Shown here one piece after another: positions 2,130 to 42,928 of a stretch of 46,955 nt of DNA. The notes under the pieces are model-generated. The model made no database searches. It had not been told where the DNA came from and saw only the letters and a list, made by a program, of their open reading frames with translations. This DNA is from a virus. Location of the stretch: the UHGV virus genome UHGV-2105699; one strand, 5' to 3'. Made by a program: the position numbers and the translations under genes. Position 1 is the first letter of the stretch, and every line of letters begins with the position of its first letter.

Positions 2130-2927
2130 TCAATCCTCCAGCTTAATGCCAGGAACTTTTCCAGCGGCGATGAGGTCGTAAATTTCCTCAGCAGCAGCCT
2201 GACACCATCCTGTTAACATAATTGCTTTCACCGCCTCATCTCGCTTCCGATCGGCTTCTGAGCGGATGGGGCGGGTAGGGCGGAATGTGACGTCGCCAAT
2301 GTTATAGGCATCCTCCCTGCCGCTTTCTTTCAACTTAACTACAACAATTTGACCGCTTGCGAAGAGTATTTTGCATGACTGCCATTCATCGCCAGCCCAT
2401 GAGCGTTCGCACACGCAACCAACTGGAGGTGTCACGCCTTCTCCATTCCAAACCGGCGCAGCATCCTGGCCGATGCACTCATTCAGGTCAGCTTCGTCAT
2501 CAGCTTTGGCCTGCTCTGCTTTCTGCGGATGGTGCATGCGGTAGGCGATGATGTCGCCGTCGTCGTCTTCGTGGCTCAATGGAAAATAGCAAGCTTGTCT
2601 ATTATTGATATGGCCAGGAAGCGGATTGCGGTATTTGACTTCAACAACCGTGTCACCACTTACCGGGCAATCCCCACCACCCCACTCAATCCATCCGTCA
2701 TCCTTGGCAGCCAGCGCGGCTTCGTACTGTTCGCGGGTGATTTTCGTGCCGCTCTTACCATGCTTGCGATGGTCAGCAGCAAGTTGATCAAGGAAGATTC
2801 CAGACCTAACATTTCCTCGACCGTAAAACATAAGTTCACGGTCGTAATCCTGTCCGATATGCGTAACCTTTTCAGGCCAACCACCAATCGCCGGTAACGC
2901 CTGAACCAACAAATCAATCGTTTTCAT
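2130..2927 (-). CDS. hypothetical protein (265 aa)
   Basis: Long ORF with good SD (GGAGATAAGAAATG) on minus strand; no recognisable motif. Confidence 0.5.
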   Translation of the reverse strand: MKTIDLLVQALPAIGGWPEKVTHIGQDYDRELMFYGRGNVRSGIFLDQLAADHRKHGKSGTKITREQYEAALAAKDDGWIEWGGGDCPVSGDTVVEVKYRNPLPGHINNRQACYFPLSHEDDDGDIIAYRMHHPQKAEQAKADDEADLNECIGQDAAPVWNGEGVTPPVGCVCERSWAGDEWQSCKILFASGQIVVVKLKESGREDAYNIGDVTFRPTRPIRSEADRKRDEAVKAIMLTGWCQAAAEEIYDLIAAGKVPGIKLED

Positions 2928-3040
2928 TTCTTATCTCCGTTATAAATGCTCTTCAGTTCACCCATCACATTCAGCCATGCTGCATGCTCATCCATGCCGC
3001 GCATCACCAGCTTAACGTAGCGATTGCGGGCCTTAAACAT
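2924..3040 (-). CDS. possible small ORF (37 aa, MFKARNRYVKLVMRGMDEHAAWLNVMGELKSIYNGDKK)
   Basis: ATG at 3040..3038; stop TGA overlaps ATG of 2130..2927 (ATGA coupling). Weak SD; below ORF-track cutoff. Confidence 0.25.
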   Translation of the reverse strand: MFKARNRYVKLVMRGMDEHAAWLNVMGELKSIYNGDKK

Positions 3041-4109: not shown

Positions 4110-4476
4110 GTTAATTCTAATCGCCATAGGCGTCGCGGTAATCATTGCTGTATCTGGTTATGGCGCTGGATACCTGAAAGGATGGTATGCGCACAGCGAA
4201 AAGGTTAATCGTGACGCAGAAAAGCGCAGGCAGGCGGCGCAAAGCAAGCAGGCTAAGTCCACGACGCAATCTCAGCAAGTGCGCGCTGTGACTGAAACCA
4301 AATACAAAACCATTTACCGCGACGTGGTGAAATATGTCTCCGACCCGAATCGTAATGTGTGTGTTTTTGATGACAACTATCAGCGGTTGCGCCAACAATC
4401 CCTCGACGCCGACGCCTCCATCGGCAGAGATGCTGGGTCAGGTGTGCGAATTGTCGAAAGTGGCGCCAAAAAATAG
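4096..4476 (+). CDS. i-spanin (Rz-like): N-terminal TM anchor plus periplasmic coiled coil
   Basis: MTRIKLILIAIGVAVIIAVSGYGAGY TM segment followed by charged helical region (RDAEKRRQAAQSKQAKS...). Confidence 0.65.
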   Translation: MTRIKLILIAIGVAVIIAVSGYGAGYLKGWYAHSEKVNRDAEKRRQAAQSKQAKSTTQSQQVRAVTETKYKTIYRDVVKYVSDPNRNVCVFDDNYQRLRQQSLDADASIGRDAGSGVRIVESGAKK

Positions 4477-4579
4477 CGACGAAAGTATCGTTATGGAGAA
4501 CCAGAACACGGAGTGCGCCACAAAAAGAAAGATGACGATTTACGACTGGCAGGATTGGTATCGTGATAACTTCCAATAA
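4334..4579 (+). CDS. o-spanin (Rz1-like outer-membrane lipoprotein), embedded out of frame in and extending beyond the i-spanin gene
   Basis: Lipoprotein signal with lipobox ISG|C (MSPTRIVMCVFLMTTISGC), Pro-rich mature N-terminus (ANNPSTPTPPS); starts inside Rz in another frame. Confidence 0.65.
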   Translation: MSPTRIVMCVFLMTTISGCANNPSTPTPPSAEMLGQVCELSKVAPKNSDESIVMENQNTECATKRKMTIYDWQDWYRDNFQ

Positions 4580-4581
4580 AA

Positions 4582-4606
4582 AAGCCCCTTTCGGGGCTTT
4601 TCTTTA
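4582..4606 (+). terminator. rho-independent terminator after lysis cassette
   Basis: GCCCC-tttc-GGGGC hairpin followed by TTTTCTTT. Confidence 0.7.
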
Positions 4607-4625
4607 ACCTTCTCCGTAGCCAATG

Positions 4626-4841
4626 TCACGCATAAAGCGCCTCCATTTTGTACCCAAACATTACTGCGTTCTGATGCTCAACACTACCAGCAAACGCCAG
4701 ATATCGGCGCCCACGATTGCTGGTGATGATGTATGCTGCTGGTTCTTCAAACCTCGGAGTGTGATAATCGCGCCGGGCAGGTTCGTGGAACTCCACCGTG
4801 TCAATTTCGATGCGTGGCACGGGGTTTTGTATTGGCATCAC
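4626..4841 (-). CDS. hypothetical protein (71 aa), last gene of leftward cassette
   Basis: Start overlaps stop of 4838..5311; competing + ORF 4623..4883 judged less likely because a leftward operon of overlapping genes runs 5961->4626. Confidence 0.35.
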   Translation of the reverse strand: MMPIQNPVPRIEIDTVEFHEPARRDYHTPRFEEPAAYIITSNRGRRYLAFAGSVEHQNAVMFGYKMEALYA

Positions 4842-5311
4842 TTTACCTCCCCATTCAGTTCATTAACAATTAATGTTGCATAGCCAGCAATGTCTTTCCA
4901 GCTATCGTCATATGTCGGGTCGCCATTCAGGATTCGACCGATTTTATGCTGAATCATGTCGAGCGCCTCCTTCTGGCTCGCCGTCAGGTTATTCCATCCG
5001 TCAACGTCGCGCATGGTGTCTTTCAGTGACTGCATGATATCGGCGCCGTCTTTGAATTTGCCATAGCGGCTGCCGCGCTCGGTGATGAGGGCTTCTGTGG
5101 AGCTGGTGCGCCCATTCAAGTCATCATCAGTTACTGGCTCACGATGCGCGACAACAATATCGCCAGCCTTTTCGATATCCTTATCTCGACCTGCATAATC
5201 CGCGCTGAGGTAGTATATTTTGCCACTGGTTGCTGATTTCACAACAAGAACGGCATCTTCATGACCATTAAAATAATCAGCACTTCCCTTCAGGTATTTG
5301 TATTTCATCAC
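4838..5311 (-). CDS. hypothetical protein (157 aa)
   Basis: Coupled ORF in leftward operon; no firm motif (EALITERGSRYGKFKD region noted, unassigned). Confidence 0.5.
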   Translation of the reverse strand: MMKYKYLKGSADYFNGHEDAVLVVKSATSGKIYYLSADYAGRDKDIEKAGDIVVAHREPVTDDDLNGRTSSTEALITERGSRYGKFKDGADIMQSLKDTMRDVDGWNNLTASQKEALDMIQHKIGRILNGDPTYDDSWKDIAGYATLIVNELNGEVK

Positions 5312-5505
5312 TCATTCACCCCACTCTCTTCAATTATTTTAATTTCAATCTGAGCAACGCGAGCATCAGGCCCATTGTCACACTCAATCAGATGCGCCCA
5401 TGCGTCGATGCGGTTGTTGAACACCCGGAAGCTGACGCCATGCTTTTCCTTGTCGGTCATAGCACTCACTCCACTATTATCAAGGACTATGAACTTCATC
5501 ATCAC
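5308..5505 (-). CDS. hypothetical protein (65 aa)
   Basis: Overlapping start/stop in leftward operon. Confidence 0.45.
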   Translation of the reverse strand: MMMKFIVLDNSGVSAMTDKEKHGVSFRVFNNRIDAWAHLIECDNGPDARVAQIEIKIIEESGVNE

Positions 5506-5539
5506 TTCACCTCCGATCTTTTATGGCGCTTGCATACAC

Positions 5540-5764
5540 TTATCGCCAGTTGCTCTCGTCTGCAATTTCTTTAATGAAAAACGCTAAATCACTCAGTTGC
5601 TCCATCTGAATCCTGCTAATCACTCTTCCGTATCTGTATTTGTTGCCATTCGCTACCCACTCCCACACTAACGTTAATGAGCAGTTAGATGTATCGAATT
5701 GATAAAAGAATGCCTTATCTTCCTTCCAGCATGAATCAAAAATAGTGCTGTCTATAATCATCAC
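5540..5764 (-). CDS. hypothetical protein (74 aa)
   Basis: Leftward operon member. Confidence 0.45.
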   Translation of the reverse strand: MMIIDSTIFDSCWKEDKAFFYQFDTSNCSLTLVWEWVANGNKYRYGRVISRIQMEQLSDLAFFIKEIADESNWR

Positions 5765-5961
5765 TCCACCCTCAATGTAACTTTGTTTTTCTCATCCACG
5801 CTGAAGTGTTCACGCACAAACGCATACATTTCTTCAGCGCTCCATTCCCGCATTGCTACATAGCAATGCGCGTAATATCTGACATCTCGCAGGCTTAACG
5901 GCTGGCGCTTAGCGATAATCTCAGTCAATACTTCCAGTGGTTCTTTGCGTTGTCTCGCCAT
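5761..5961 (-). CDS. hypothetical protein (66 aa), first gene of leftward operon
   Basis: SD CAGGAGAG upstream; preceded by motif site at 5986-6003. Confidence 0.45.
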   Translation of the reverse strand: MARQRKEPLEVLTEIIAKRQPLSLRDVRYYAHCYVAMREWSAEEMYAFVREHFSVDEKNKVTLRVE

Positions 5962-5984
5962 TGTCGCTCTCCTGTGAAAATCAT

Positions 5985-6036
5985 CTTGACGAATCTACGT
6001 CAATTAGTCAATACTAGATGCTGTAGATTATAACAT
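5985..6036. promoter_or_regulatory. divergent regulatory region: palindromic cTTGACGaatctaCGTCAAt (5985-6004) plus inverted partial copy ctgTAGATT and TATAAC -10 (6029-6034) upstream of HNH gene
   Basis: TTGACG at 5986-5991 and CGTCAA at 5998-6003 form an inverted repeat around the conserved AATCTA core. Confidence 0.4.
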
Positions 6037-6051
6037 CTTAATGCGAGTGAC

Positions 6052-6573
6052 GTGGATATGAACTTTATTGACTTGTTTGTTTACGAAAACGGCAAGCTTT
6101 ACTGGAAGGTTAAGCCGTCAAACAACGTAAAGGCTGGCGCAAGGATTGGGTGCCTGGAGCCAACGACAGGTTATCGAAAGGTAAAAGTAAAATACACCCA
6201 GACATATGAGCACAGGATTGTTTGGGAGCTATTTAACGGACCAATACCGGAAGACATGGAAATTGATCACATCAACCACATCAGGGATGACAACCGAATA
6301 GAGAATCTGAGGCTTGTTAACAGGAGAGAAAACACGAGAAACAGTTCAATCAGGAGTGACAACACCAGTGGTGTTGTTGGTGTTTGTTTTGATAAAAAGT
6401 GCGGCAAGTGGTACGCGCAAATAGTCTTAAACGGAACAAGGCTGCACTTAGGTCGCTTTTCAGAAAAGAGCGAAGCAATAAAGGCCAGACTTGAAGCTGA
6501 AATGAAATATGGTTTCCATGAAAACCATGGAATCAATAGGCCAAAAAGAATGATAAAAGGTGGTGTGGAATGA
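6052..6573 (+). CDS. HNH homing endonuclease with C-terminal AP2 DNA-binding domain (copy 1 of 3)
   Basis: HNH core EHRIVWELFNG...IDHINHIRDDNRIENLRLVNRREN; AP2-like SGVVGVCFDKKCGKWYAQIVLNGTRLHLGRFSEKSEAIKARLEAE. Confidence 0.8.
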   Translation: MDMNFIDLFVYENGKLYWKVKPSNNVKAGARIGCLEPTTGYRKVKVKYTQTYEHRIVWELFNGPIPEDMEIDHINHIRDDNRIENLRLVNRRENTRNSSIRSDNTSGVVGVCFDKKCGKWYAQIVLNGTRLHLGRFSEKSEAIKARLEAEMKYGFHENHGINRPKRMIKGGVE

Positions 6574-6785
6574 AGAAGTGGCAGGAGGTGACAGAGGTTC
6601 ATAAGCGCGATTGCCGGGAGACTCTGCAAATGCTTAATGTGCCGGAGTCAATCATTAAATCTATCGAGCAGCGCATTGACCTCGCTGCTATGGAGGCCGC
6701 CCATGAAGCCGAGGAAGCGCAAATGTTGTCATGGATGGACAGAACTCTACCGGGCGTTTTACGTCGTGGTAAGACTACCGATTGA
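6570..6785 (+). CDS. hypothetical protein (71 aa)
   Basis: Start overlaps HNH stop (ATGA). An overlapping alternative ORF 6637..6879 exists; not resolved. Confidence 0.3.
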   Translation: MKKWQEVTEVHKRDCRETLQMLNVPESIIKSIEQRIDLAAMEAAHEAEEAQMLSWMDRTLPGVLRRGKTTD

Positions 6786-6868
6786 AGATGATGACGGGTA
6801 TCTGCACAACCATAGTCAGGTGCTCAAATATTATGGCGTTCACTATAAAGTGCTGATGGAGAGAAAAA

Positions 6869-7060
6869 ATGACTACTGATCAGGTGTACGAAAAAGAATT
6901 GCTGAACAAGCTGGAAGAACTTGATCGCACTCGCGCGTGGGTTGAAAGCGAATTGCGCGAGGTTCGCAACCGTATGCAACGGCAGGTTAACCGCGAAATT
7001 ATCGAATGGCGCGAAGGGCGTCCGCATTTCAGCAACATTGGTGAATGGGTGGCGAAATGA
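6869..7060 (+). CDS. hypothetical coiled-coil protein (63 aa)
   Basis: SD GGAGAGAAAAAATG; helical heptad-like sequence. Confidence 0.5.
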   Translation: MTTDQVYEKELLNKLEELDRTRAWVESELREVRNRMQRQVNREIIEWREGRPHFSNIGEWVAK

Positions 7061-17845: not shown

Positions 17846-18601
17846 ATGGCTATTTGTGCAAATGATAACGGCATCATCACAGGTCGCCAGTCTCTCATTG
17901 AGCTGGCTGATGGCTGCTGGGATGCTGTGCCAGCAGAGGAAGACTGGAAGTTTTTTGCTCCCATGACCTCAAAAGGCGTCGACTTCAGTCCAAGCACCAC
18001 CACTTCAGAGGCTGATGATGGCGATGGCTTTGTCGCCACGCTGGTCACTACGGCAGACCTCACCATTTCCGGTGATTTTGAAGTTCGCAAGGCTGACAAG
18101 GCTGATGAGTATGGCGTGCATAACCTCATCAAATACTTTGTCACCGAAGTAAAAGCGCGTCGCCAGCCGTCGCTGTGGGTTCGCCAGACCACCGGTAATA
18201 CTGTTGTCGTGGCTTACTGCAACATTACCGCTCTGAGCTACGATGGCGGCACCAACGACATCATCACCGGCTCTGTTGAACTCAAGCCGTATGATGGCTC
18301 TACCGTTGACGTGTACAGCATCGAAGACCTGACGCTGACTACTGATATCAGCGCAACAAAAAGCGTTGCCACTGGCGCCACTCTGACGCTCGGCCCGGTG
18401 GTTGCGGCTGGCGGTGTAGAGCCTTATACCTACCAATGGTATAAAGGCACCACGCCGATCAGCAGTGCTAATACCAACACGTTCACCAAGGACACTGCTG
18501 CCGCAGGTGATGATGGTACGTACTTCTGCCGCGTGATGGACTCGGCAACCAGTCCTGATTACGTTGACTCTACTAAGTGTGTCGTCACCGTGACCGAATA
18601 A
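17846..18601 (+). CDS. major tail protein with C-terminal Ig-like (Big_2-type) domain
   Basis: 251 aa; SD AGAGGA; C-terminal ~80 aa (TLTLGPVVAAGGVEPYTYQWYKGTTPIS...DDGTYFCRVMD) has an Ig-like fold signature (Y.C pattern) as in lambda gpV-type tail tubes. Confidence 0.6.
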   Translation: MAICANDNGIITGRQSLIELADGCWDAVPAEEDWKFFAPMTSKGVDFSPSTTTSEADDGDGFVATLVTTADLTISGDFEVRKADKADEYGVHNLIKYFVTEVKARRQPSLWVRQTTGNTVVVAYCNITALSYDGGTNDIITGSVELKPYDGSTVDVYSIEDLTLTTDISATKSVATGATLTLGPVVAAGGVEPYTYQWYKGTTPISSANTNTFTKDTAAAGDDGTYFCRVMDSATSPDYVDSTKCVVTVTE

Positions 18602-18603
18602 AG

Positions 18604-18632
18604 AAAACCCCCGAAAGGGGGTTTATTTTTTC
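18604..18632 (+). terminator. strong rho-independent terminator after major tail gene
   Basis: AACCCCC-gaaa-GGGGGTT hairpin followed by TATTTTTT. Confidence 0.8.
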
Positions 18633-18808
18633 AGCAATGAAGATACGCGGATTCTCCACAATGACAAGTTAGCGAGCGATACCGCTAACTCCATGTGAAT
18701 CAATCTAAGTTTTTCAATATCAACAAAGACCGGGGCGTTGTATTGTTGATTGCTTCTTATGTACTTTGAAATAGTATCAGCATCATTATTATCAAGAGTC
18801 ATCATCAT
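18623..18808 (-). CDS. hypothetical protein (61 aa)
   Basis: Last ORF of the leftward HNH cassette; weak support. Confidence 0.3.
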   Translation of the reverse strand: MMMTLDNNDADTISKYIRSNQQYNAPVFVDIEKLRLIHMELAVSLANLSLWRIRVSSLLKK

Positions 18809-19097
18809 TCTCCTCTCTGATTGCAGTATACAGTTGTCGACGCAACATACACAGCGCTCCGTGTGGCATAAACTGTGAAACCATTCCGTCGAATATCTTC
18901 CGGTTTAATTTATTATCAATTCTCGGCCTGATTGCAGACCAGCATGACCTGATTGCACGATTAACCGGACGGCGGTCGAGCATTGCTATTCGCGCAGCTA
19001 GCTCAATAGTCACGATCGCGTCAAGATACTGCTCGCAGGAGTAGCGTGATTCGTCATCCTCTTCCGTGGTTTTTATGGTAGTTAAGTTTTCTTTCAT
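18792..19097 (-). CDS. hypothetical protein (101 aa)
   Basis: Overlaps HNH gene end; part of AT-rich leftward cassette. Confidence 0.4.
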   Translation of the reverse strand: MKENLTTIKTTEEDDESRYSCEQYLDAIVTIELAARIAMLDRRPVNRAIRSCWSAIRPRIDNKLNRKIFDGMVSQFMPHGALCMLRRQLYTAIREENDDDS

Positions 19098-19602
19098 ATA
19101 TCAATCTCGCCTTAACGGCATCGTCAAAGTTTACGTAGTAACCTATTGTTTTCTTTTTACCATCAATTGATATTGAAGACTTCCATTTCCCAAACCTATT
19201 AATAAAACAAACGCCACTAACGCCGCTAGTATTGTTTTTTTGCCTTGGCCTGTTTTTCATATTCTCAGACATTGACACATTTCTTAGATTTTCTATCCTA
19301 TTATTAGTCCCATCACCATCAATGTGGTCGATGTAATCAGGCCAATAACCATAATTCATAAACCATATTACCCTATGAGCTTTGTAAACCTTGCCATCTA
19401 TCCTTATGTTAATGTAAGAAGTCTGATGATCTTTGCTTTTTGACTCCCAACCAGCTTTGCTACCTTTAACCTTCCTGGCGTATCTATCAACATTCCATAC
19501 GAGATAACCATCATTATGGTATGTGAACAGTTCATTAAGCCTATCAAGCGATACGTCTGTTAACATTAAACACTCAATGCACCATCGAATACTATGTAAC
19601 AT
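19054..19602 (-). CDS. HNH homing endonuclease with AP2 domain (copy 2 of 3)
   Basis: YKAHRVIWFMNYG...IDHIDGDGTNNRIENLRNV and AP2-like SGVSGVCFINRFGKWKSSISIDGKKKTIGYYVNFDDAVKARLIYE; AT-rich codon usage relative to neighbours. Confidence 0.8.
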   Translation of the reverse strand: MLHSIRWCIECLMLTDVSLDRLNELFTYHNDGYLVWNVDRYARKVKGSKAGWESKSKDHQTSYINIRIDGKVYKAHRVIWFMNYGYWPDYIDHIDGDGTNNRIENLRNVSMSENMKNRPRQKNNTSGVSGVCFINRFGKWKSSISIDGKKKTIGYYVNFDDAVKARLIYERKLNYHKNHGRG

Positions 19603-19646
19603 ATAATACTTGGTGCGGGTTTATCTGTCATCTATTTTTCTTCTCA

Positions 19647-19775
19647 TCAAGCATCACCACAGTGCACCGCCATGTCAGTATACGGGGATCTTGATATGCA
19701 GTCGTAGTCGACCACAATCTCTGCAACACGTAAATTAATCTCAAAATCACTCATCTTGCTGTAATCAGTGCTCAT
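19647..19775 (-). CDS. possible small ORF (42 aa, MSTDYSKMSDFEINLRVAEIVVDYD...)
   Basis: ATG overlaps stop of the upstream small ORF (ATGA coupling); below ORF-track cutoff. Confidence 0.25.
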   Translation of the reverse strand: MSTDYSKMSDFEINLRVAEIVVDYDCISRSPYTDMAVHCGDA

Positions 19776-19906
19776 CTCTTATCCTCCACCACTACGCCAA
19801 TCTTATCCAGCAACAAAATCGCCTTTACGCGGGCCTCTTCATAGGTGTAGCCCTGGTCAATGTAAAGGTCGATGTAGAATCTCAAATCAGCATCAGTCTC
19901 GTTCAT
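19772..19906 (-). CDS. possible small ORF (44 aa, MNETDADLRFYIDLYIDQGYTYEEARVKAILLLDKIG...)
   Basis: SD GAGGG 7 nt upstream of ATG 19906; first gene leftward of the divergent promoter. Confidence 0.3.
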   Translation of the reverse strand: MNETDADLRFYIDLYIDQGYTYEEARVKAILLLDKIGVVVEDKR

Positions 19907-20711: not shown

Positions 20712-23700
20712 TGGCAGAAGAAGTTGGCGGCATTGTCTATGAGGTTGGCATTGACACATCTCAGTTAGCAGCTGGAAGTCGTGAAATAGAGTCGATGCTA
20801 AATGACCTCAGTGGGAACATGGGGCGGCTCGAGGCCAGTGTAAACAGGACGGAGCGCTCTATAAGCTCAATGGAAGGAACCATGTCGAGCCTCACTGGTG
20901 TCGCAAAAGGCTTGCTTGCAGCACTTTCCGTGCAACAGGTTGGCGCCTACGCTCAGGCGTGGCAGGATATGAGTAACAAACTCTCTAACGCCGTGAGAGA
21001 TTCGGTTCCGCCGTTTGAAACCCTTGCCGATGTAACTAATCGTGTTTTTGATATCGCGCAGAAAACACGCTCAGGACTTGACGCAACGGCCACCTTGTAC
21101 GCCAGACTTGAGAGGTCTACCAGAAGCTATGGTGTAAGCGTGGAAGACCTGACAAGGCTGACAACAATAATCAATCAGGGTTTTGTTGTATCAGGAGCGT
21201 CAGCTGAGGAGGCGAGCAACGCAATTATACAGCTTGCACAAGGCATGGCATCTGGCGCCCTTCGAGGAGATGAGTTTAACTCAGTAAACGAGCAGGGAAA
21301 CCGGCTCATGATAGCTCTTGCCGACTCTCTGGGTGTTGGCATCGGTGAGCTTAGAAATATGGCTGCGCAAGGGAAACTGACAACTGATGTTATAGTTAAT
21401 GGCCTTCTGTCGCAGGGAGACAGTATTGGGAGAGAGTTCGCCAAAACAACTTCTACCATCAGCCAGTCTCTGGAGATAGCCGGAAATAACGTTGCAAGAT
21501 TCTTTGGGGAAAACGCAACGGTAAAAACAGGTGTAAAAATCTTTAGCGATTCAGTGATACTGGCAAGTGAAAATATTCAGGCGCTTGGCACAGCGCTGAC
21601 TGTTGTTGCTGGAATCATGGGGAGTCGATATGTAGGCGCGCTGGCAATGTCCACTGCCGCGAAAATATCAGATATAGCAGCATCAAGACAGCAATTAATA
21701 GCTGAGAACCAGCAGGCACAATCAGCACTTGTGGCTGCAAATTCCGCGCAGAGGAAGGCTTTAGCTGATAAAGAGGCGGCGCTATCATCTCTGGCGCTTG
21801 CTCAGGCTGAATATAACGTAGCAAAAGGCAGTGCAGCCGAGATGCTGGCGCTTGATGCTCTGGTTGCAGCAAAATCAAGAGCTAGTGCTGCGTCACTATC
21901 ACTTGCTCAGGCTGAAAACGCACAGGCTACGGCATCAGCGAGAGCAGCATCCGCGGCAAGCGCTGCATCGGTAGGAATTGGCCTTGCCAGAGGTGCTCTT
22001 TCATTGATAGGCGGGCCAGCAGGCGCGGCGATGTTAGCAGCGGGGGCAATATTTTACTTTTGGCAGAAAGCACAGCAAGCCAGAGAAGAAGCAATCCGCT
22101 TTGCCGATAGTCTGGACAAAGTAAACGCCTCAATGAAGGCGATGAATAATACCCAACTCAGGGGGGTGATAGCTGACGCCAATATTTCAATTTCGGCGCA
22201 AAAGGATGCCGTGAGAAATCTGCAAAGTGAAGTTGATGCACTTCGTGAGAGGTATCTTAGCTTCACTCCTGCCGCGCAAGAGGTGGCTGAGTCACTTGGT
22301 CAAGGGTCGCAATTTGCTTCTGATCAGGAAAGGGTGCTCAATGAATTAAATAAAAAATCAAGAGATTTAGCTGATGCTCAGGATAAACTAGCAAGAACTC
22401 AGGACACGGCAGCAGAAGCAAGCAGAACCCTAACAAACAACATGCTTACCTCAATGGGGGTGCATGATGGTCTGATTGAGAAAGGCTCGACTCTTGAGAG
22501 AGTGCAGGGGGCGGTGGCAAGAGCATTTGGATTGACTGCCGATGAGATAAACAGAGCAAACCAAGCCGGGCAAAACTTCAACCCCAAATCCTTGCAGGTG
22601 TCAGCCCCAACAAAAGAAGCTGATAAGATCATTCTCAGTCTTGAGGAGCAGAATCAGCTTTTAAAAATACAGGATGAAAGACAGAGGGAGGTAACAAAAG
22701 CACGACTGGAGGCCCAAAAGGTAACTGATAACCCCAATCAGATAGCCAGGGCTGCTGAACTTGCAGGACAGATATATGATTTGAATGAGGCCGAGAAAGC
22801 AAGAGAAAAAGCACAAAATAATTCTCAATTATCGGCAAAAAAAGCAGCCACAGAGCAGGAGAATATCGCCAATAAACTTGAGCAGCTTCGCCAGAAGTCA
22901 CTGCTTACCGCTGAAAGTACAAGAGAGCTTAGCCGCGAACAGTCAATACTGGCTGCTCAGCAATCACTTGGTAAGGGGGCCACTCAGGAGCAAATTAACC
23001 TTGCCGGGCAATATGCGGCTAAGGCATGGGATAACGCCAACGCGCTCAAGGCTCAGGCAGAGGCGGAGAAAAAAAGAGCAGAAGCTGTAAAAGGCTTTGC
23101 TGCATTAAAATCGCAGACATCCCCAATGTTTGCCGTTGAAACAAACTATCAAAAAGATTTAGCAGCGCTCAATGCTTACGCGGTGGCTTACCCGAAAAAG
23201 ATAGCGGAGGTTGAGCAGGCCAGAGCAGCAATTGAGGAGCAATACCGCAAGCAGCGCCTCGATGCCATGTGGCAGGAGTGGAGCCAGCAGAACGCGGCCA
23301 CACAAGCGGCCGCTGCTGCATTTGATGCTTTTGGGCAAACCGCAAGCAACGCCTTAACTGGCGTTCTGACTGGCTCAATGTCTGTTAGCGAGGCTCTACA
23401 GTCAATAGGGAGCAATGTGTTAAATGCGGTTATTAACTCTTTCGTTCAGATGGGCGTGGAGTGGCTTAAATCGGTAATCATGGGACAGGCAGGAATGGCA
23501 GCAGCATCTGCCGCAACCGCTGCTCAGGCGGCAGGAATAGCAGCAGCCATGGCACCAGCAGCAGCGATGACATCACTTGCCACGGGTGGTGCTAACGCAG
23601 TACCTGCACAGGCTGGCATTGTTTCCACCATTGGTGTTGCTAAAGCAATGTCTGTTGCCGGGGCATTAAAGAATGGTGGGCCTGCGCAGGCTGGCTCAAT

Positions 23701-32521: not shown

Positions 32522-32930
32522 CAAGCCCAAAATAGAATAACGTCGCCCTTTTTAACTCCTCAAGACCATAAGAAATGGCGCCAAAGTGACCCTCTGCAAT
32601 GGCGCACTCCAGAACCTCAATCTGCGATGGCGATACTTTTGATTTTGTCTTATCACGCCTCTTCAGCTCAATCAGGCCGCATTTATGATTAATGCCGTGA
32701 GTTAGTATCACATTGTCGCTTACTCCGCTCCTGACGCCCATTTTGCGGCGTTTCTCGACGAATTGAGGGCCGCTCTTTGTTCCAGTCTCGTTAGGCACAT
32801 GAAACCACAGGACTTCAGGGAATCGGTATTGCATCCACAGACCATAGGCCATCTGGTCAGTTTCCTCCCTTGGACACTCCCCGCGATAACCACTATCAAA
32901 TACCCATATTCCACTATCAAGCTGCTTCAA
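32514..32930 (-). CDS. VRR-NUC domain nuclease
   Basis: 138 aa with VRR-NUC-type core (GVSDNVILTHG...GLIELKRRDKTKSKVSPSQIEVLEC). Confidence 0.6.
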   Translation of the reverse strand: MKQLDSGIWVFDSGYRGECPREETDQMAYGLWMQYRFPEVLWFHVPNETGTKSGPQFVEKRRKMGVRSGVSDNVILTHGINHKCGLIELKRRDKTKSKVSPSQIEVLECAIAEGHFGAISYGLEELKRATLFYFGLDE

Positions 32931-33451
32931 TTTGTTCTCCTACCGTGGTTTTTATGGAATCCATGCTTAACCTCAGCTTCCGCTCTTGCTTTTGCCGCAT
33001 TATTAAAATCAACAAATAATCCAAGATAAATGTTTTTACCTTTGACTTTTATTTGAGCCATCCATTTCTTCCTGTCTGAGTTCCATGTCACACCAGTAAC
33101 TCCAGAGGAGTTATTGGTTGCGATACCTTGATTCATGCCATTCCCAAGATTATTAACTAGCCTGAGATTTTCTATTCGATTATCATCACGAACATGATTG
33201 ATGTGATCAATCTGCATACCTCCTTGTATTGGCTCGTTATGCATTTCCCATATGATTCTATGTGCACGATAAAGACCCCTGCCAATTCTGACCATTACAT
33301 AACCAAACCTTGGGCGCTTGTTGCCTGCCGCTTTATATGCAAACCTAGTATTCCAAGTAGCTGCTGACTTCTTCGTCTTAAAAGTTGAAACATTTCTCTC
33401 CTTCCATATCAGAAGGCCATTTTCATAGTAAAAATAATCATGCCAGTTCAT
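32927..33451 (-). CDS. HNH homing endonuclease with AP2 domain (copy 3 of 3)
   Basis: YRAHRIIWEMHNEP...IDHINHVRDDNRIENLRLVNN and AP2-like SGVTGVTWNSDRKKWMAQIKVKGKNIYLGLFVDFNNAAKARAEAE; ~80% nt identity to copy 1 over the HNH core. Confidence 0.8.
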   Translation of the reverse strand: MNWHDYFYYENGLLIWKERNVSTFKTKKSAATWNTRFAYKAAGNKRPRFGYVMVRIGRGLYRAHRIIWEMHNEPIQGGMQIDHINHVRDDNRIENLRLVNNLGNGMNQGIATNNSSGVTGVTWNSDRKKWMAQIKVKGKNIYLGLFVDFNNAAKARAEAEVKHGFHKNHGRRTN

Positions 33452-35069
33452 TTTTTTGTCCGAATTCTTTTCTGTGGATGATATCGCGGCCTTTATCGTT
33501 AAAACGATGCGTTATGCGTTTTGGCGCGCGGATAAGACCAGTGAACGCCATGAATGCTTTTGCGTTGTGGCAATTCATGAGGTTATCAATCATATTCCTG
33601 TCTGATACGTGGTTTAGTAATCCTTTAATCTTAAACTGATTTTTAAGGTACTTCTCCTGCCTGCCAAATGGATAGAAAACCTCACTGGCCCAGCCATCTT
33701 TGCCGTTTTCTTTCGTGATGAAGTAACGATAAACAACGCCCTTCTCATCTTTCGTTAGCTCAATCTTGAAATCCTTGACTTCAGTCCATTCATTATCCGT
33801 ATAAGCACGCTCATTGAGAGCCGCGTTAGGGTCGCGCAAAACGTGATCGCATTGACGGCAATAACGAGCTGTCGGGTCGTTTTTTGTGCCGCAACCATCA
33901 TCAAAAATACGGATGCCGTGCTTGTCGAAACCGCAGCGAATGAAGCTGAAAAACTCTTCGCAACGACCATCTGGCGACGTTGAGTCTTTACCGATGCAAC
34001 GCCGTGCATATGGGCTGTTCATCGTCTGGCATTTAGGGCATGGAACCTGCTCTCCGCTACGCTTGGCGCGCTGCGCTTCTGCTTCCTCAAGAATAGGGTC
34101 TTCGTAGAGTTGGCCAAGCTCAAACATTGTTCCCGAGAAATCGAGAACCAGATGATCTTCTTTATGATACCCGGCTTCTATGTGTTCTTTTTTAAGTAGT
34201 CGCATACCCCTGCCCAATAATTGGACAAGAAGAGTTAACGACATTATTTTCCTTAGTATGACGCTTACATCCCACAAAGGTATGTTTACACCTGTTGTTA
34301 ACGCCGCAATTTGGAATGTGTATTTTATTTTTCCAGTGTAGGCATCTTTTAGAGCCTTCCGGCGAGCTTTCATGCCCATATCTTCAGTTACTATCGCATA
34401 GCTTCCTTCTGGTAAATATTTAGCGGCTTCCAAGCAATGCTTTTTCCCGGCACATGTAATCAATACCCCGTTCCTGTTTTTGGTCAACTCCATAACCTTG
34501 AGCATGATTTTCTGTGTAAGCGTACCTTGCTCAAGGATTTCTTTCTGCATCTGCTTTAGTTGTTCGGCAGTGAAATCCTGTGTGCCATCGCTTCCTGATG
34601 CCTCAAATGCTGACAGATCGTAATGCAAATCATCAATGTCATGCAGGCCAAAAATCGTCGGCACAAGAAACCCAATATCAACAAGATATTTGGTGTCAAT
34701 GTTTACTATTTCATGTTTCCAGTAAGCACCCTTAATCGAGTCTGTGCCACGAAAGGGACTGCCTGTATATCCAATAACGATGACATCGTGACCGTATTTA
34801 GCCTTACATCTGCGGTTAAGTTCAGTCATTATTACGCCATATTGCGTTTCAGGACTTTCGCTTACCACGTCCTCCCAGTTCATCTGGTGGCAGTTATGAG
34901 CTATGAATCCGTTTGCAACAAAGTTGTGATGGGTAGGCATCTCTATATCCCACACCATCTCATCACCAATTTCATTTATTGACTCGATTACTTTTGATTT
35001 TGTATTCCACGCCATCTTCCATGTGGTCAGCAATTCTTTTAAAAAACTCATCCTGCGCTTCCTCATCAA
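33438..35069 (-). CDS. helicase C-terminal fragment carrying an N-terminal intein C-half (IntC) - C-extein begins CHQMNW (DECH motif II), contains motif VI QLLGRGMR and a C-terminal multi-Cys zinc-finger region
   Basis: ORF begins (TTG 35069 / ATG 35066 / ATG 35048 with SD GAGGAAG) with ...KVIESINEIGDEMVWDIEMPTHHNFVANGFIAHN|C = intein blocks F and G followed by +1 Cys; same reading frame as the N fragment (36518-35069 = 1449 = 3x483). Confidence 0.6.
   Translation of the reverse strand: MMRKRRMSFLKELLTTWKMAWNTKSKVIESINEIGDEMVWDIEMPTHHNFVANGFIAHNCHQMNWEDVVSESPETQYGVIMTELNRRCKAKYGHDVIVIGYTGSPFRGTDSIKGAYWKHEIVNIDTKYLVDIGFLVPTIFGLHDIDDLHYDLSAFEASGSDGTQDFTAEQLKQMQKEILEQGTLTQKIMLKVMELTKNRNGVLITCAGKKHCLEAAKYLPEGSYAIVTEDMGMKARRKALKDAYTGKIKYTFQIAALTTGVNIPLWDVSVILRKIMSLTLLVQLLGRGMRLLKKEHIEAGYHKEDHLVLDFSGTMFELGQLYEDPILEEAEAQRAKRSGEQVPCPKCQTMNSPYARRCIGKDSTSPDGRCEEFFSFIRCGFDKHGIRIFDDGCGTKNDPTARYCRQCDHVLRDPNAALNERAYTDNEWTEVKDFKIELTKDEKGVVYRYFITKENGKDGWASEVFYPFGRQEKYLKNQFKIKGLLNHVSDRNMIDNLMNCHNAKAFMAFTGLIRAPKRITHRFNDKGRDIIHRKEFGQKNELA
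34893..35015 (-). other. intein C-terminal half (about 41 aa: MAWNTKSKVIESINEIGDEMVWDIEMPTHHNFVANGFIAHN), blocks F/G
   Basis: Classic HNF..NG...HN terminal motif immediately followed by Cys (34892-34890); length and pattern comparable to naturally split IntC halves. Confidence 0.6.
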
Positions 35070-35841
35070 AAATACTTACACAAAACATTTCGCGCTTTTT
35101 CGTTCCGCCAATGTAAGAATTAACTCGCGCTCCATTTAACCCAAGAAAATCATTCAATGCATTGGCAACTTCCCAGCATTCATCCTCAATGAACGCCTCG
35201 GTGTGAATAAATACCTGCCTGTACTTGCCGTAAGATATTGATGAATGCCCATCATCACCAAAATAAACAGCCCAACCAACTTCGTTTAACTCCCTGCATA
35301 TCTTTCCTATGTTGTACCCATTTGCTGAGTCGCCATATTTCTCAGCGTACCTGTCAAGTATCTTTGTGCATGATGTTCTAACCTGGAACCATTTGTCACC
35401 GAATCCATGATTATCCCTTTCGCTGTATGCTGCATTAAGTTTTTTGAATCTTGCGGCCTTGCACAGAGCGTGTTCTTTATTTCCCATATTCCACATCAGT
35501 CTGTGCGTTCCCCTTTTTGTGTTCTTAATCAGACACCCATCACCAGCAAGAGCGGCGAGTATGTTTTGATGCAAGAAGTAATCAATAACAAGGCCGCTAT
35601 CAACCGTTGAATTATGATGACCAGACCTAAAATCAACATAGTAACCGTAAGGATTTTCCAGCAATGCACTCAATCCTTTGCTCGCGTGCGGAAAAACCTT
35701 CTCGCCACAGCCACACTTGCACGAAGGAGCTTTGTCATAAATCTGTCCGACGAGCCATCTAACGACAGAGTCATCCCAGCCTTTAGTTTTCCCGCTTCTA
35801 CCCAGCAGCCGTTTGAATAAAGTTTGTGTGTACTCGTGCAT
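34972..35841 (-). CDS. LAGLIDADG-type homing endonuclease ORF lying between/overlapping the two intein halves, in the -1 frame relative to them
   Basis: Two LAGLIDADG-like motifs (NILAALAGDGCLIKN and GWAVYFGDDGHSSISY); ATG 35841 preceded by strong SD GGAGAGGAAATAAAATG; overlaps IntN ORF by 172 nt and IntC ORF by ~95 nt. Confidence 0.55.
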   Translation of the reverse strand: MHEYTQTLFKRLLGRSGKTKGWDDSVVRWLVGQIYDKAPSCKCGCGEKVFPHASKGLSALLENPYGYYVDFRSGHHNSTVDSGLVIDYFLHQNILAALAGDGCLIKNTKRGTHRLMWNMGNKEHALCKAARFKKLNAAYSERDNHGFGDKWFQVRTSCTKILDRYAEKYGDSANGYNIGKICRELNEVGWAVYFGDDGHSSISYGKYRQVFIHTEAFIEDECWEVANALNDFLGLNGARVNSYIGGTKKREMFCVSIFDEEAQDEFFKRIADHMEDGVEYKIKSNRVNK

Positions 35842-36518
35842 TTTATTTCCTCTCCGCCTTTTAATTTAACTGATGATACGCGTTTTATGCCATTAGTAAA
35901 TACTCTTTTAGGTTTGTGGTACACCCACTCACCAGCGACCTCATCCAAGCACTTGATTTCTTTGTTTATTAAGCTATCGTCATCAATTCTCACCCATCCA
36001 TCACTCGTCAATATCAGTGCATCACCAGTCAGGCACTCATCCATAAGAACAAAGCGAGGAGAAAAATCGGAAAGCGCACCTTTAGAAAGTAAATTACCTG
36101 ACTCGTCCTTCTTATCGAAAAGGCCATTTATTATTGTTCCCTCCGTACCAGCAATAAGCGGGTATGCCGTTGACTTTCTGCCAAGAGCAGCGCTAAAAAG
36201 TGAGTTTTTCACACTCAGATTCCACAGTTCCTCCGCATCCTGCTCAATAATTTCTGGCTGTCTTGCAATAACAAGCCCTTCCCACCCCATATCCTGAAAG
36301 CGCCGCGCAATCATGGCAATCATGATCGTCTTACCAGCACCTACCGATGCGGTAACGAAACTTGGCTTAGGGTCTTTGCCAAACTTGCGGATAACTTCAG
36401 CCGTCTTTTCATAAACCAGCCATTGATAAGGTCGTGGCTCAATCTCACCCGTATTAACAACTGACCGCAATTTGTCTATATCCAGCTCCGCAATCATTGC
36501 GTCTATTTTATGCGTCAT
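35670..36518 (-). CDS. helicase N-terminal fragment (Walker A ASVGAGKT; motif II LMDE) fused to intein N-half
   Basis: 161 extein residues ending VLMDE, then intein block A; ORF terminates 121 aa later. Joining exteins reconstitutes DECH-box motif II (VLMDE + CHQ). Confidence 0.6.
   Translation of the reverse strand: MTHKIDAMIAELDIDKLRSVVNTGEIEPRPYQWLVYEKTAEVIRKFGKDPKPSFVTASVGAGKTIMIAMIARRFQDMGWEGLVIARQPEIIEQDAEELWNLSVKNSLFSAALGRKSTAYPLIAGTEGTIINGLFDKKDESGNLLSKGALSDFSPRFVLMDECLTGDALILTSDGWVRIDDDSLINKEIKCLDEVAGEWVYHKPKRVFTNGIKRVSSVKLKGGEEIKCTSTHKLYSNGCWVEAGKLKAGMTLSLDGSSDRFMTKLLRASVAVARRFFRTRAKD
35673..36035 (-). other. intein N-terminal half (about 121 aa) beginning CLTGDALILTSDGWVRI (block A) with block B IKCTSTHKLY
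   Basis: Cys1 codon at 36035-36033 directly after extein residues FVLMDE; TxxH block B; ends at its own stop codon (35672-35670). Confidence 0.6.
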
Positions 36519-37502: not shown

Positions 37503-37735
37503 TATTCTATGCTAATTAAAACGTAACCAGGAAGATATGAGCTCACATCAGCTATATGCACAATTAATTTATCAACCCTCTCCCCTGTGTAATCACCATC
37601 CCATTCATAAAGAGCAAGAATGTCTCCAACCTTAAAATTACGGTCGTTATTCCTTAGTTCAGCCCTCTTTAAACCATCGACAACAGGCCAAAAGTGTTGA
37701 GGTAATATTTTAAGTTCATGTACTTTGCTCATCAT
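37502..37735 (-). CDS. ASCH-like (DUF3850-type) PUA-fold protein
   Basis: MMSKVHELKILPQHFWPVVDGLKRAELRNNDRNFKVGDILALYEW matches the DUF3850/ASCH N-terminal pattern (HELKIwP..F..v..G.K..E.R.NDR.F.vGD.L.L.EW). Confidence 0.55.
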   Translation of the reverse strand: MMSKVHELKILPQHFWPVVDGLKRAELRNNDRNFKVGDILALYEWDGDYTGERVDKLIVHIADVSSYLPGYVLISIE

Positions 37736-39285
37736 TTTAGTCTCGGATTCAGGTAAACAGTGTTATTAAGGAATACGCAATATCCATCTTCTTCAAGAGA
37801 CGGCAAAACATTTGACTTTAGTCTGTCATAAATATGCGGTATACCTTTGAATGGTCTAACGTTTTTTAGCGAATCATACAGCCATTTTACCGTGACATTT
37901 GTCTTTCCTTTTTGCGCAGCTGTGCGCAATTTTTCAGCAACTACATCAATTTCTGATTTCTCGCCAGCGTATCCATTTGACTCAACGGCATCGGTAAATG
38001 TTTTTGTTAGTGCATCATAAACGCTTATGGCGCGGCTTATATGCTCCTCACCAATAATTTTTGAGCGACGACCGCCATCGCACCAGTTTTCAGCGGCATG
38101 GAATATTGCTGAAAGCCTGATTATCTGTTTGTCAGCCTTACCCATGGCGCCACGAAGCAAAACGTGATCCCATTTACCACCTGGCAGGAAATTCTTTTCC
38201 CACTGGTTTCGTAAAAGCCCAATCATGCGCTGCGATTCTTTAGCTAGGGAGAAAACAACCTTCTCAGAAGCCACAAGGTTATGCACAAACCTGGCATATT
38301 CTGCCTTTAGTTCTTTAGGCATTGGCTTACTTACCGGGCAATCATTTTCTACATCCCAATGCTCACGATAACCCAACATTGACTGCTCACGAAGCATCAG
38401 GAATCGCTCTGACAATCCATTACCCCTGTCTCCAGCGGAAAGAATGGCATCAATACTTTCATCCTGCGCAATGACGCTGATGTTACCAAGCACATAGCCA
38501 GATGAAACACCGCGACCAACGCGAGCTGATCCAACAAACCCGCCATCCCAGCCTTTCAGGATTACCTCTGCGTTAGACTTGCCACCATCTTTGCCATATG
38601 AAAGGCCAAGACAGGTATTTAAAACGCTTGCCTCATCACTTATCAGGTTGAAAAAACCACCCTCATGAATTGCCTGGTGCTGCACCGCTTCTGGTGTTGC
38701 GTCGGTTAACGGGTAGGTGATGGTGTAAAGACTTTCCAGTTTCTCCTTCTCTTTCGCAATGTCATCTCCAATGATGGCTTTCGCGTTCTGATTCGTCGCC
38801 TCCTTGTAAGCCTTCATCAGGTCTTCAATGCGAATGTTTATCTTTGCAATTTCTTTCTCCATCTTTTTTGACAGGTTGTCATACTCAATTTTTATCGGGT
38901 TCATGTGCATTGAGTTGATGGCTGTCTTGCCAGCTGATGGTGGCTGCGACGTCACCACATACAAGGAAACAGGCAATTCAGAACCGTAGTATTCAACGCT
39001 AAAATTTCGCGTCATGGCACTGGCTACGCAGCCAAGCAGGTGCATGAATGACGTGCTAACGGGGAATTGAACAGCCCTAGCCGCTGCAACTGAATATCGC
39101 GTTATCAGGTCTTTCCTGTTGTCGCTGGTAAGCTCTATCTCCGAGTATGTTACATCCCTCTCCTGCCCTTCCTTGATTTCCGGCCACATGTTATGGCTTG
39201 GTGTCATGCCATGGTGAATGGCGACGCGCGCCGCAGAGGTGTGCGCCTCTCTTGCCTGATTGAAGATTTCCTGTGCCGCAATCAT
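37732..39285 (-). CDS. P-loop ATPase, DUF3987-like replication protein (primase/helicase-associated)
   Basis: 517 aa; deviant Walker A SQPPSAGKT; size and context next to primase and putative origin. Family assignment is from memory of DUF3987 features and not verified. Confidence 0.4.
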   Translation of the reverse strand: MIAAQEIFNQAREAHTSAARVAIHHGMTPSHNMWPEIKEGQERDVTYSEIELTSDNRKDLITRYSVAAARAVQFPVSTSFMHLLGCVASAMTRNFSVEYYGSELPVSLYVVTSQPPSAGKTAINSMHMNPIKIEYDNLSKKMEKEIAKINIRIEDLMKAYKEATNQNAKAIIGDDIAKEKEKLESLYTITYPLTDATPEAVQHQAIHEGGFFNLISDEASVLNTCLGLSYGKDGGKSNAEVILKGWDGGFVGSARVGRGVSSGYVLGNISVIAQDESIDAILSAGDRGNGLSERFLMLREQSMLGYREHWDVENDCPVSKPMPKELKAEYARFVHNLVASEKVVFSLAKESQRMIGLLRNQWEKNFLPGGKWDHVLLRGAMGKADKQIIRLSAIFHAAENWCDGGRRSKIIGEEHISRAISVYDALTKTFTDAVESNGYAGEKSEIDVVAEKLRTAAQKGKTNVTVKWLYDSLKNVRPFKGIPHIYDRLKSNVLPSLEEDGYCVFLNNTVYLNPRLK

Positions 39286-39543
39286 CTAAACCTCGTACTC
39301 AGTGGCAAATGATTCATGTGGGTTTTCAGATAGCCATTGCTTAGCTTTAAGTACGGCTGCGTTTGCCTCCTCTGCCGTTTCAAACCTGCCAAGCTCATAC
39401 CTGAGTCGGTTAACAACAATCCTAGCCCTGAAATATCCAGAGTGCTTATGGAAGTCAACCCCTCTAAACCCGGTAGATGATGGCCTTCCGCCACCGGATG
39501 ATGAAAGTCTTTTTTTCTTAAGTAGCTTTCCATGTGCAGACAT
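39286..39543 (-). CDS. free-standing AP2-domain DNA-binding protein (HNH-less)
   Basis: TGFRGVDFHKHSGYFRARIVVNRLRYELGRFETAEEANAAVLKA is an AP2-type fold like the C-termini of the HNH-AP2 endonucleases; stop/start coupled to the DUF3987 gene. Confidence 0.55.
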   Translation of the reverse strand: MSAHGKLLKKKRLSSSGGGRPSSTGFRGVDFHKHSGYFRARIVVNRLRYELGRFETAEEANAAVLKAKQWLSENPHESFATEYEV

Positions 39544-39559
39544 AATTTACCCTCGCTCA

Positions 39560-39950: not shown

Positions 39951-39952
39951 TA

Positions 39953-39981
39953 TTGACGTAGATTGGGCGCCATCGTATAGT
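39953..39981 (+). promoter_or_regulatory. sigma70-type rightward promoter TTGACG-N17-TATAGT with conserved TAGATTGGG spacer start
   Basis: TTGACG 39953-39958, spacer 39959-39975 (tagattgggcgccatcg), TATAGT 39976-39981; mirror image of the promoter at 15024-15052. Confidence 0.6.
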
Positions 39982-40011
39982 TACCACACCAACAACAAAG
40001 AGGTGATGAAA

Positions 40012-42548: not shown

Positions 42549-42550
42549 TT

Positions 42551-42904: not shown

Positions 42905-42928
42905 CCCGCTTCGGCGGGTTCTTTTTTT
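42903..42928 (+). terminator. rho-independent terminator
   Basis: ACCCGC-ttcg-GCGGGT hairpin followed by TCTTTTTTT. Confidence 0.75.

Follow-up and report, generated by a model that had tools for sequence, protein, structure and literature searches.

The free-standing Seg and Mob genes of phage T4 are intergenic and patchily distributed among close relatives, and neither intron nor intein takes part in their spread, in which the empty allele is cut and repair copies the gene in. The Seg proteins are GIY-YIG enzymes and the Mob proteins are HNH enzymes without an AP2 domain, and in this they differ from the genes that concern us here, which we identified in UHGV-2105699, a complete Roufvirus-like Klebsiella siphophage genome of 46,955 bp analyzed over its whole length (the window). 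Three are intact HNH-AP2 endonuclease genes, that we named H1 (6052–6573, plus strand), H2 (19054–19602, minus strand), and H3 (32927–33451, minus strand), and two are nuclease-less relatives, D1 (45942–46457, plus strand) and A1 (39286–39543, minus strand). Very probably, H1, H2, and H3 are three independently acquired free-standing homing genes, each combining an HNH_3 and an AP2 domain, and D1 and A1 are relatives without nuclease that are kept by selection.

Genes of this kind were described in the Xanthomonas oryzae phages Xp10, OP1, and Xop411, with 6–8 free-standing HNH genes per genome (Lee et al. 2007; PMC2248197). They are mostly dispersed HNN-AP2 types, accompanied by forms without HNH or with a partial AP2 domain, and similar multicopy families were listed in phages T1, Rtp, T5, RB16, RB43, and bIL170 (PMC2248197). 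Like H1–H3, the Xanthomonas phage proteins have an N-terminal HNN-type HNH domain, HRxxW, DNR, NLR, and EN boxes, no Cys dyads, and a C-terminal AP2 domain; as in UHGV-2105699, HNH-less or AP2-only relatives coexist with them and their positions vary among related phages. However, host and lineage are different, and the HNH-less forms were read there as progressive degeneration (PMC2248197), whereas purifying selection and fixed positions make D1 and A1 look retained. The IPA-HNH genes of the lytic Vibrio phage ICP1 are likewise free-standing, encode HNH and AP2 domains and lie at breaks in conservation, but they are too divergent for the Pfam HNH_3 profile, of which H1–H3 are canonical members (PMC10448857). 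Barth et al. (2023) reported ICP1 nuclease genes at the boundaries of genetic exchange as well as frameshifted copies, and discussed domestication of the DNA-binding domain (PMC10448857). Dispersed HNH-AP2 genes with degenerate relatives are of a kind already known. The only increment here is evidence that selection maintains the nuclease-less relatives, which are not decaying, together with a nuclease-dead D1 family that is mildly new.

The five open reading frames (ORFs) had been proposed as one HNH-AP2 family in an earlier note on this DNA, and all are present with the coordinates and strands given there. No further HNH-AP2 member was found beyond these five among all ORFs of the genome with a local hidden Markov model of H1–H3. 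The Pfam HNH_3 profile (PF13392, gathering score 24.8) matches H1 (E = 3.5e-21, 75.0 bits), H2 (E = 1.4e-16, 60.3 bits), and H3 (E = 2.6e-17, 62.6 bits), and it matches neither D1 nor A1. The PHROG family phrog_99, “HNH endonuclease,” spans H1 (E = 1.5e-67), H2 (E = 7e-57), and H3 (E = 8.7e-60) end to end. The four residues of the D-H..N..N signature (D70, H71, N83, and N92 in H1 numbering) are invariant in a 70-sequence family alignment including H1–H3, and all five proteins share collinear motifs. The Pfam AP2 profile (PF00847) gives 14.4–24.0 bits for the five proteins (E = 4.9e-5 to 0.05), below its gathering score of 33.3. Entries for several close members of the family list the same profile, and a profile built from the five C-terminal blocks matches the solved AP2 domains of WRI1 (E = 1.1e-6), TEM1 (E = 0.01), and ERF1 (E = 0.07).

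Fold comparisons agree with these assignments. The AlphaFold model of H1 (predicted local distance difference test score, pLDDT, 84.7) finds AP2 domains and I-HmuI as its top folds in the PDB. Its HNH part, made of strands 67–71 and 84–88 and helix 89–94, adopts the beta-beta-alpha-metal fold, and its AP2 part is a three-stranded antiparallel sheet (strands 109–112, 117–124, and 127–134) with a helix (137–151). With Foldseek, I-HmuI (1u3e) is the second match overall, with a probability of 0.98 and a weak E-value of 7.5e-3, and no other HNH-type endonuclease appears among the significant top structural matches; TEM1, WRI1, ERF1, and PfAP2 are matched with probabilities of 0.84–1.0. A phmmer search of the PDB with H1 also returned I-HmuI weakly (E = 0.13), along with spurious repeat-protein matches. 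I-HmuI, the nicking enzyme of Bacillus phage SPO1, resembles H1 by its His-Me finger core following a beta-rich N-terminal DNA-contacting region, but it is intron-encoded, has a C-terminal helix-turn-helix in place of AP2, and is ~18% identical in sequence. The sheet and helix of the phage AP2 domain are also those of the plant AP2/ERF proteins WRI1, TEM1, and ERF1 and of Plasmodium ApiAP2, which, unlike the phage proteins, are eukaryotic transcription factors. Together, these results support the reading of H1–H3 as HNN-type HNH_3 (His-Me finger) plus AP2 genes of the homing-endonuclease type, as the note had proposed. Their nuclease, like that of I-HmuI and fused to an AP2-type DNA-binding domain, would be expected to cleave DNA at specific targets.

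UHGV-2105699 is 90–94% identical, over 50–85% of its length, to the Klebsiella phages BUCT610, RCIP0103, KlebP_265, DP01, KP591P3, and KpV2811 and to Aeromonas phage pIS4-A, the type member of the genus Roufvirus. Its backbone is common to ~90 Klebsiella relatives, and the ends of the genome as recorded fall within the portal gene (~46506 to the end, then 1–998). We determined the distribution of H1, H2, H3, and D1 from DNA matches in a collection of 50,697 phage records. Near-identical copies of H1 and 92–94% identical copies of H3 and D1 are already annotated “HNH endonuclease” in GenBank/RefSeq. A comparison with HNH-free relatives, already suggested by the earlier note, shows that H1 and H3 are exact insertions.

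H1 was brought by a 512-bp insertion (6037–6548), delimited by blastn junctions and junction sequences relative to HNH-free alleles; in BUCT610 its flanks are contiguous (8975/8976). Copies 99.0–99.4% identical occur in the Klebsiella phages KP591P1/P3, KpV2811, and VR6602 only (four distinct phages), and the gene is missing from BUCT610, KlebP_265, pIS4-A, and DP01. Its likely start is the ATG at 6058 (171 amino acids), as annotated in relatives, and its stop codon overlaps the ATG (6570) of a downstream 71-amino-acid gene, of whose ribosome-binding and start region the H1 start region is an imperfect copy. The insertion lies between a resident promoter-like site (TTGACG-18-AATACT, 5986–6015, plus strand), predicted by consensus scan and kept in HNH-free relatives, and the ribosome-binding site of the first gene of the rightward operon. 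The 512 bp are the most conserved segment of this length in the genome relative to KP591P3 (99.4%, 100th percentile; genome median 93.6%) and reach the 99th percentile relative to KpV2811. Judging by this identity, H1 alone of the three genes seems to bear any sign of recent spread.

H3 is inserted exactly at the 14-nt overlap of an SF2 helicase gene and a downstream gene of 138 amino acids, annotated as a VRR-domain endonuclease in KlebP_265. About 15 bp of target sequence are imperfectly repeated on either side of H3 (GGAGAACAAATTGAAG vs GGACAAAAAAATGAAC), so that both neighboring genes stay intact. Copies 93.5–94.1% identical were found in three phages only (SCNJ1-C, DP01, and KlebP_265), and the gene is missing from BUCT610, KP591P3, KpV2811, pIS4-A, and CF-SP1; the ratio of nonsynonymous to synonymous substitution rates (dN/dS) is 0.19. 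In KlebP_265 and DP01 the homologue is annotated as two coding sequences; we considered decay and rejected it, the full-length frame with its ATG being intact.

The boundaries of H2 are less clean. Its likely start is Met-13 at 19566 (170 amino acids), because homology with Salmonella phage CF-SP1 (Swiduovirus) begins there and a promoter-like site lies within the N-terminal extension of the longer ORF. CF-SP1 provides the only full-length DNA match (81.5%), and its copy is syntenic, between the major tail gene and the tape-measure chaperone gene; dN/dS between the two is 0.04, with a saturated synonymous divergence (dS) of 1.7. A predicted promoter-like site (ATGACA-17-TATTAT, 19603–19631, minus strand), directly upstream of H2, is kept beside the CF-SP1 copy. 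H2 belongs to a hypervariable cluster of small minus-strand genes. A remnant of 42 codons of a DUF2591 gene (19647–19775, minus strand) is truncated where the H2 cassette starts: positions 19654–19906 are 94.5% identical to BUCT610 22696–22948, which include the 5′ end of gp52 (DUF2591, 22440–22817), and homology ends at 19654. The gene immediately downstream of H2 encodes a DUF7740 protein (18792–19097, minus strand; Pfam E = 8.6e-24). In pIS4-A the DUF7740 gene stands beside a different HNH-AP2 gene, 42% identical to H2 and located at the H2 site, and in KP591P3, where the site is empty (19209/19227), it stands beside no HNH gene. KpV2811 carries at this tail locus a pIS4-A-type HNH-AP2 gene split into two ORFs (18360–18848).

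Presence/absence polymorphism at a fixed site with intact, conserved flanks is thus seen for H1 and H3, and less cleanly for H2. All three genes are AT-rich, as the earlier note had remarked: their G+C contents of 0.423 (H1), 0.359 (H2), and 0.389 (H3), vs 0.473 for the genome, rank at the 13th, 2nd, and 6th percentiles of 520-nt windows, and those of D1 (0.444) and A1 (0.461) are unremarkable. Patchy distribution, precise H1 and H3 junctions, alternative alleles at the H2 site, and AT richness uphold the view of H1–H3 as mobile accessory DNA. Additional HNH genes occupy other places in relatives: pIS4-A has such a gene upstream of the helicase gene, VR6602 between Lar-like and MarR-like genes, and KlebP_265 between erf and ssb.

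We propose that, during co-infection with a related phage lacking the gene, the enzyme would nick or cut the empty allele near the insertion point, and that recombinational repair from the gene-bearing genome would copy the gene with some flanking sequence, a process of intron-less homing equivalent to marker exclusion. H1 would have settled at a harmless and expressed site, between the resident promoter-like site and the first gene of the operon, and H3 at a gene-gene overlap that would have been rebuilt on both sides. H2 would have come with its own promoter-like site into the variable cluster of small genes, its cassette truncating the DUF2591 gene. D1 would descend from an active HNH-AP2 subfamily through replacements, since conserved, at the catalytic positions, and A1 would be an AP2-only protein coupled to a replication helicase gene.

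Several observations weigh against this scenario. We infer homing itself from pattern only, and cleavage, target specificity, and the roles of D1 and A1 are likewise inferred. The single-sequence Pfam AP2 scores of the five proteins are under the gathering threshold. Loss of activity in D1 is deduced from missing residues only, and its structure model is poor (pLDDT 62, and <50 in the former HNH segment); the AP2 part of this model has the same sheet-helix topology as H1, with a pLDDT of 67–80. A co-conversion gradient was sought around H1 and none was demonstrable: the immediate flanks are 95.5–99.1% identical in HNH-free and 97.5–98.1% identical in HNH-bearing relatives, and because they are about equally conserved in the former, no co-conversion tract can be claimed. 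H3 and D1 diverge at the rate of their flanks (dS 0.19–0.27 vs 0.24–0.34; identity at the 41st–47th percentile of the genome), with no sign of recent movement; for H3, dS is 0.19–0.20. These dN/dS comparisons leave out two segments whose coordinates were out of frame, the C-terminal part of the helicase gene and the N-terminal part of the portal gene. Finally, the H2 boundaries shift with the comparator genome and include a truncated neighboring gene, and cassette replacement by ordinary recombination would fit them as well as homing does.

The HNH genes could also be viewed as ordinary accessory genes that are passively shuffled, their nuclease serving the phage by degrading host or competitor DNA or by processing its own DNA. 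This would apply particularly to H2, found in a hypervariable cluster with boundaries like those of a cassette replacement and under purifying selection over a saturated dS, which points to long-term maintenance, and to H3, which, as D1, co-diverges with its flanks; the limits of bioinformatics in calling homing have been acknowledged (PMC10448857). However, the insertion of H1 and H3 as exact single genes at junctions, with intact neighbors, is a hallmark of free-standing homing genes. Moreover, relatives carry different HNH-AP2 alleles and a broken copy at the H2 site, and the architecture is that of a documented family of homing endonucleases (PMC2248197, PMC10448857). We therefore consider passive shuffling unlikely and favor independent acquisition of three homing genes.

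A different history had been put forward in the earlier note, namely that several sites in this genome recently received copies of a single HNH-AP2 gene and that D1 and A1 are older, decaying copies. The collinear motifs of the five proteins are compatible with it, and so is decay, which does occur among these phages: at the tail locus of KpV2811 the copy is split, and D1 of ZCKp20p (2501–3016) is interrupted by one in-frame stop in place of a Cys codon, its annotation giving two small ORFs. A linear gain and decay was also proposed for the Xanthomonas phages (PMC2248197). Sequence relationships between the paralogues nevertheless speak against recent copying. Over the whole protein, H1 and H3 are 49% identical, H1 and H2 39%, and H2 and H3 42% (range reported overall, 36–49%), and nucleotide similarity is confined to patches of 48–87 nt; the identity of about 80% announced for H1 and H3 comes down to 77% over 87 nt only. 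Using tblastn, H1 matches 3,736 phage records, and H3 is more distant from H1 than are the nearest nonorthologous ones among them (55%, in KLPN1-like Klebsiella phages). Many proteins of other phages, 55–79% identical to H1 or 75–77% identical to H3, are closer than the paralogues. In the 70-sequence sample, which was picked by similarity to H1 and gives tree and counts that should be read with this bias in mind, 47 of the 67 sampled database proteins surpass H3 in closeness to H1, and 26 surpass H1 in closeness to H3; the smallest neighbor-joining clade with H1 and H3 comprises 60 of the 70 sequences, and any clade including H2 comprises all 70. Dozens of proteins from other phages are hence closer to each paralogue than the paralogues are to one another, which contradicts recent repeated homing within one genome. 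On these comparisons, H1, H2, and H3 are independent acquisitions from a very large pool and not recent in-genome duplicates. As D1 and A1 are, in addition, members of conserved families under strong purifying selection at fixed genomic positions, we regard the recent-copying model as very improbable.

D1 is an HNH-AP2 derivative without catalytic residues, composed of an N-terminal domain, an altered HNH segment, and an AP2 domain. It matches phrog_99 in two stretches (E = 6.9e-30), and the D1 family aligns with the HNH-AP2 family over 137 columns (hhalign probability 99.2%, E = 8e-20). In this alignment VYSVSQNPFSSRWSDLS faces IDHINHIRDDNRIENLR, and the positions of the catalytic D-H..N..N read Y-S ... 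D. The hhalign collinearity and the missing HNH_3 match bear out the claim that D1 lost the catalytic motif and kept the N-terminal region and an AP2-like C-terminus. Its description as a decay product does not hold. The 11 homologues are 56–96% identical and 167–170 amino acids long (one 150-amino-acid fragment was excluded from the alignment), and the catalytic His and Asn are missing in all of them. The former HNH segment is nearly invariant (YTARRLAWLYMTG.FPP.GQ.VYS.SQNPFS..WSDLSI.P.GCR), down to 56% identity; with VYSxSQNPFSxxWSDLSI kept throughout the family, it is among the two most conserved stretches of the protein. Differences from the BUCT610, RCIP0103, and ZCKp20p orthologues are mostly synonymous (dN/dS 0.05–0.16, dS 0.21–0.31). 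True decay among relatives is seen in the split KpV2811 gene and the interrupted ZCKp20p copy.

By an exhaustive search with a D1-clade profile, the clade is very small: four cluster representatives reach 160–333 bits, followed by the general family (29,867 proteins, E ≤ 1e-3). The nearest members of the latter have the D1-like N-terminal motifs LTQxELKxWL and RLAWLYMTG, yet keep IDHxD..N..NLR..N. As these nearest relatives share the N-terminal motifs and retain the catalytic residues, D1 is derived from an active HNH-AP2 subfamily. D1 is the last gene before a promoter-like element and a hairpin that precede the portal gene. This stretch (46459–46500), just after the D1 stop codon, consists of an exact extended −10 element (TGCTATAAT), a GC-rich hairpin, and a T-run leading to the portal start, and it is kept in all relatives, with or without D1. 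In the two distant members of the D1 family that were examined, the gene stands in the interval separating the large terminase gene from the portal gene, and terminase-adjacent HNH proteins are a known essential class (PMC10448857), but a packaging-associated HNH function of the HK97 gp74 type, in which the protein works with terminase, is hardly credible even for D1, as 11/11 family members are devoid of the catalytic His and Asn, DNA homologues of D1 were found in only four distinct phages of the collection, six relatives without D1 keep the same terminase and portal genes, and H1–H3 are far from the packaging genes and equally patchy.

A1 is an 85-amino-acid protein that matches AP2 (E = 4.9e-5, below the gathering score) and phrog_35306 (E = 4.5e-51), a PHROG of unknown function, and has no HNH_3 match; it is an AP2 domain alone, as first described. 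Its stop codon abuts the ATG of a gene for a 517-amino-acid DUF3987 helicase (37732–39285). A1 homologues (62–99% identity, 82–90 amino acids) abut the start of the DUF3987 helicase gene in every context examined, where they are the first gene after an AT-rich noncoding region of ~450 bp. Compared with the pIS4-A copy, A1 shows eight synonymous and no nonsynonymous differences (dN/dS about 0). This pattern and the fixed place beside the DUF3987 gene are at odds with its presentation as a decay product. The RefSeq annotation of BUCT610 has at this place gp72 (41333–41707, corresponding to 39282–39656 here), a 124-amino-acid ORF overlapping A1 in a different frame. The gp72 frame is probably wrong, because it is the A1 frame that matches a PHROG family and differs from pIS4-A by synonymous changes only.

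Upstream of the operon formed by A1 and the DUF3987 helicase gene, positions 39544–40012 are noncoding and AT-rich (G+C content ~0.36). They contain eight copies of GGGTWA vs 0.28 expected (Poisson p ~7e-10, for a motif picked after seeing the data), as well as repeats of GGGGCA/TGCCCC and a number of inverted repeats. Four metagenomic relatives (L014–L017) keep both the region and its repeats. We regard the region as a candidate origin of replication or regulatory region, to which A1 might bind.

To judge from their substitution patterns, D1 and A1 are maintained genes under purifying selection and not decaying ones. They are most likely sequence-specific DNA-binding proteins that do not cleave, and domestication of the AP2 module is a reasonable reading for both. 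There are precedents for a nuclease-free DNA-binding repressor such as we propose for D1 and A1. CapR of phage satellites is a regulator derived from a homing gene (PMC10448857), and the AP2-containing CasPR anti-CRISPR repressors of Bacillota prophages combine CapR and AP2 domains (bioRxiv 10.64898/2026.02.23.707548); D1 and A1 have no CapR domain. More tentatively, one may imagine that D1 stands for a small clade of exapted HNH-AP2 proteins, nuclease-dead and not described before, encoded between the terminase and portal genes of Roufvirus-like phages, with the catalytic D-H..N..N replaced by the VYSxSQNPFSxxWSDLSI motif and an insertion of ~10 residues, and that these proteins act as a sequence-specific DNA-binding regulator or as a shield against related endonucleases; at the same time, A1, with its AP2 domain alone, would initiate or regulate the DUF3987 module by binding the GGGTWA/GGGGCA repeats. 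This combined proposal is possible rather than probable.

Other mobile elements were encountered in the same genomes. The SF2 (DExH) helicase gene next to H3 (33438–36518, minus strand) is broken at its DE|CH box by an intein spread over more than one frame. A first minus-strand ORF (35670–36518) encodes the N-extein and ~115 amino acids of the N-terminal part of the intein (..FVLMDE/CLTGDALILT..) before a stop codon; a second (34972–35841), which has its own ATG and lies in a different frame, encodes a LAGLIDADG endonuclease (LAALAGDG, YFGDDG); and a third (33438–35069) encodes the C-terminal part of the intein and the C-extein (..FIAHN/CHQMNW..). A further HNH gene was one candidate for the extra ~1 kb, rejected in favor of the intein with its LAGLIDADG ORF. 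The gene is intein-less in six of six close relatives, and its annotation is similarly split in Escherichia coli phage AN_ECEAS. Three readings suggest themselves: a “fractured gene” composed of a split intein and a free-standing homing gene (compare PMC2677866), a broken intein, or sequencing frameshifts. At its N-terminal end (36032–36517) the helicase gene is 94.7% identical to Salmonella phage Seszw_1; nothing matches this segment in the six compared relatives within the covered part (up to 35951), and this points to a mosaic junction within the gene, beside the intein. The large terminase gene is 2,520 nt long in KpV2811 (40664–43183) and pIS4-A (4426–6945), vs 1,425 nt in UHGV-2105699, with homology broken in mid-gene; this suggests an intein or intron in the two longer genes. 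In the KP591P3 record, the last ~45 bp repeat the first bases (ATCCATGCGATGGGATTTTTTATGG...) at the hairpin upstream of the portal gene, either as a terminal repeat or as an assembly overlap.

The importance of these findings beyond annotation is small. In Roufvirus-like Klebsiella phages, themselves phage-therapy candidates, they confirm a changing complement of selfish HNH-AP2 genes, which serve as markers of where genetic exchange occurs. In phage cocktails such genes could cause marker exclusion, and their defined empty alleles are ready substrates for finding new site-specific nicking enzymes. An origin of AP2/ERF proteins from HNH-AP2 endonucleases was proposed by Magnani et al. (2004), as cited in PMC2248197 and PMC10448857. 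D1 and A1 would be natural cases in which the DNA-binding module of a homing endonuclease is retained for a different task, the path by which plant AP2 factors are proposed to have arisen.

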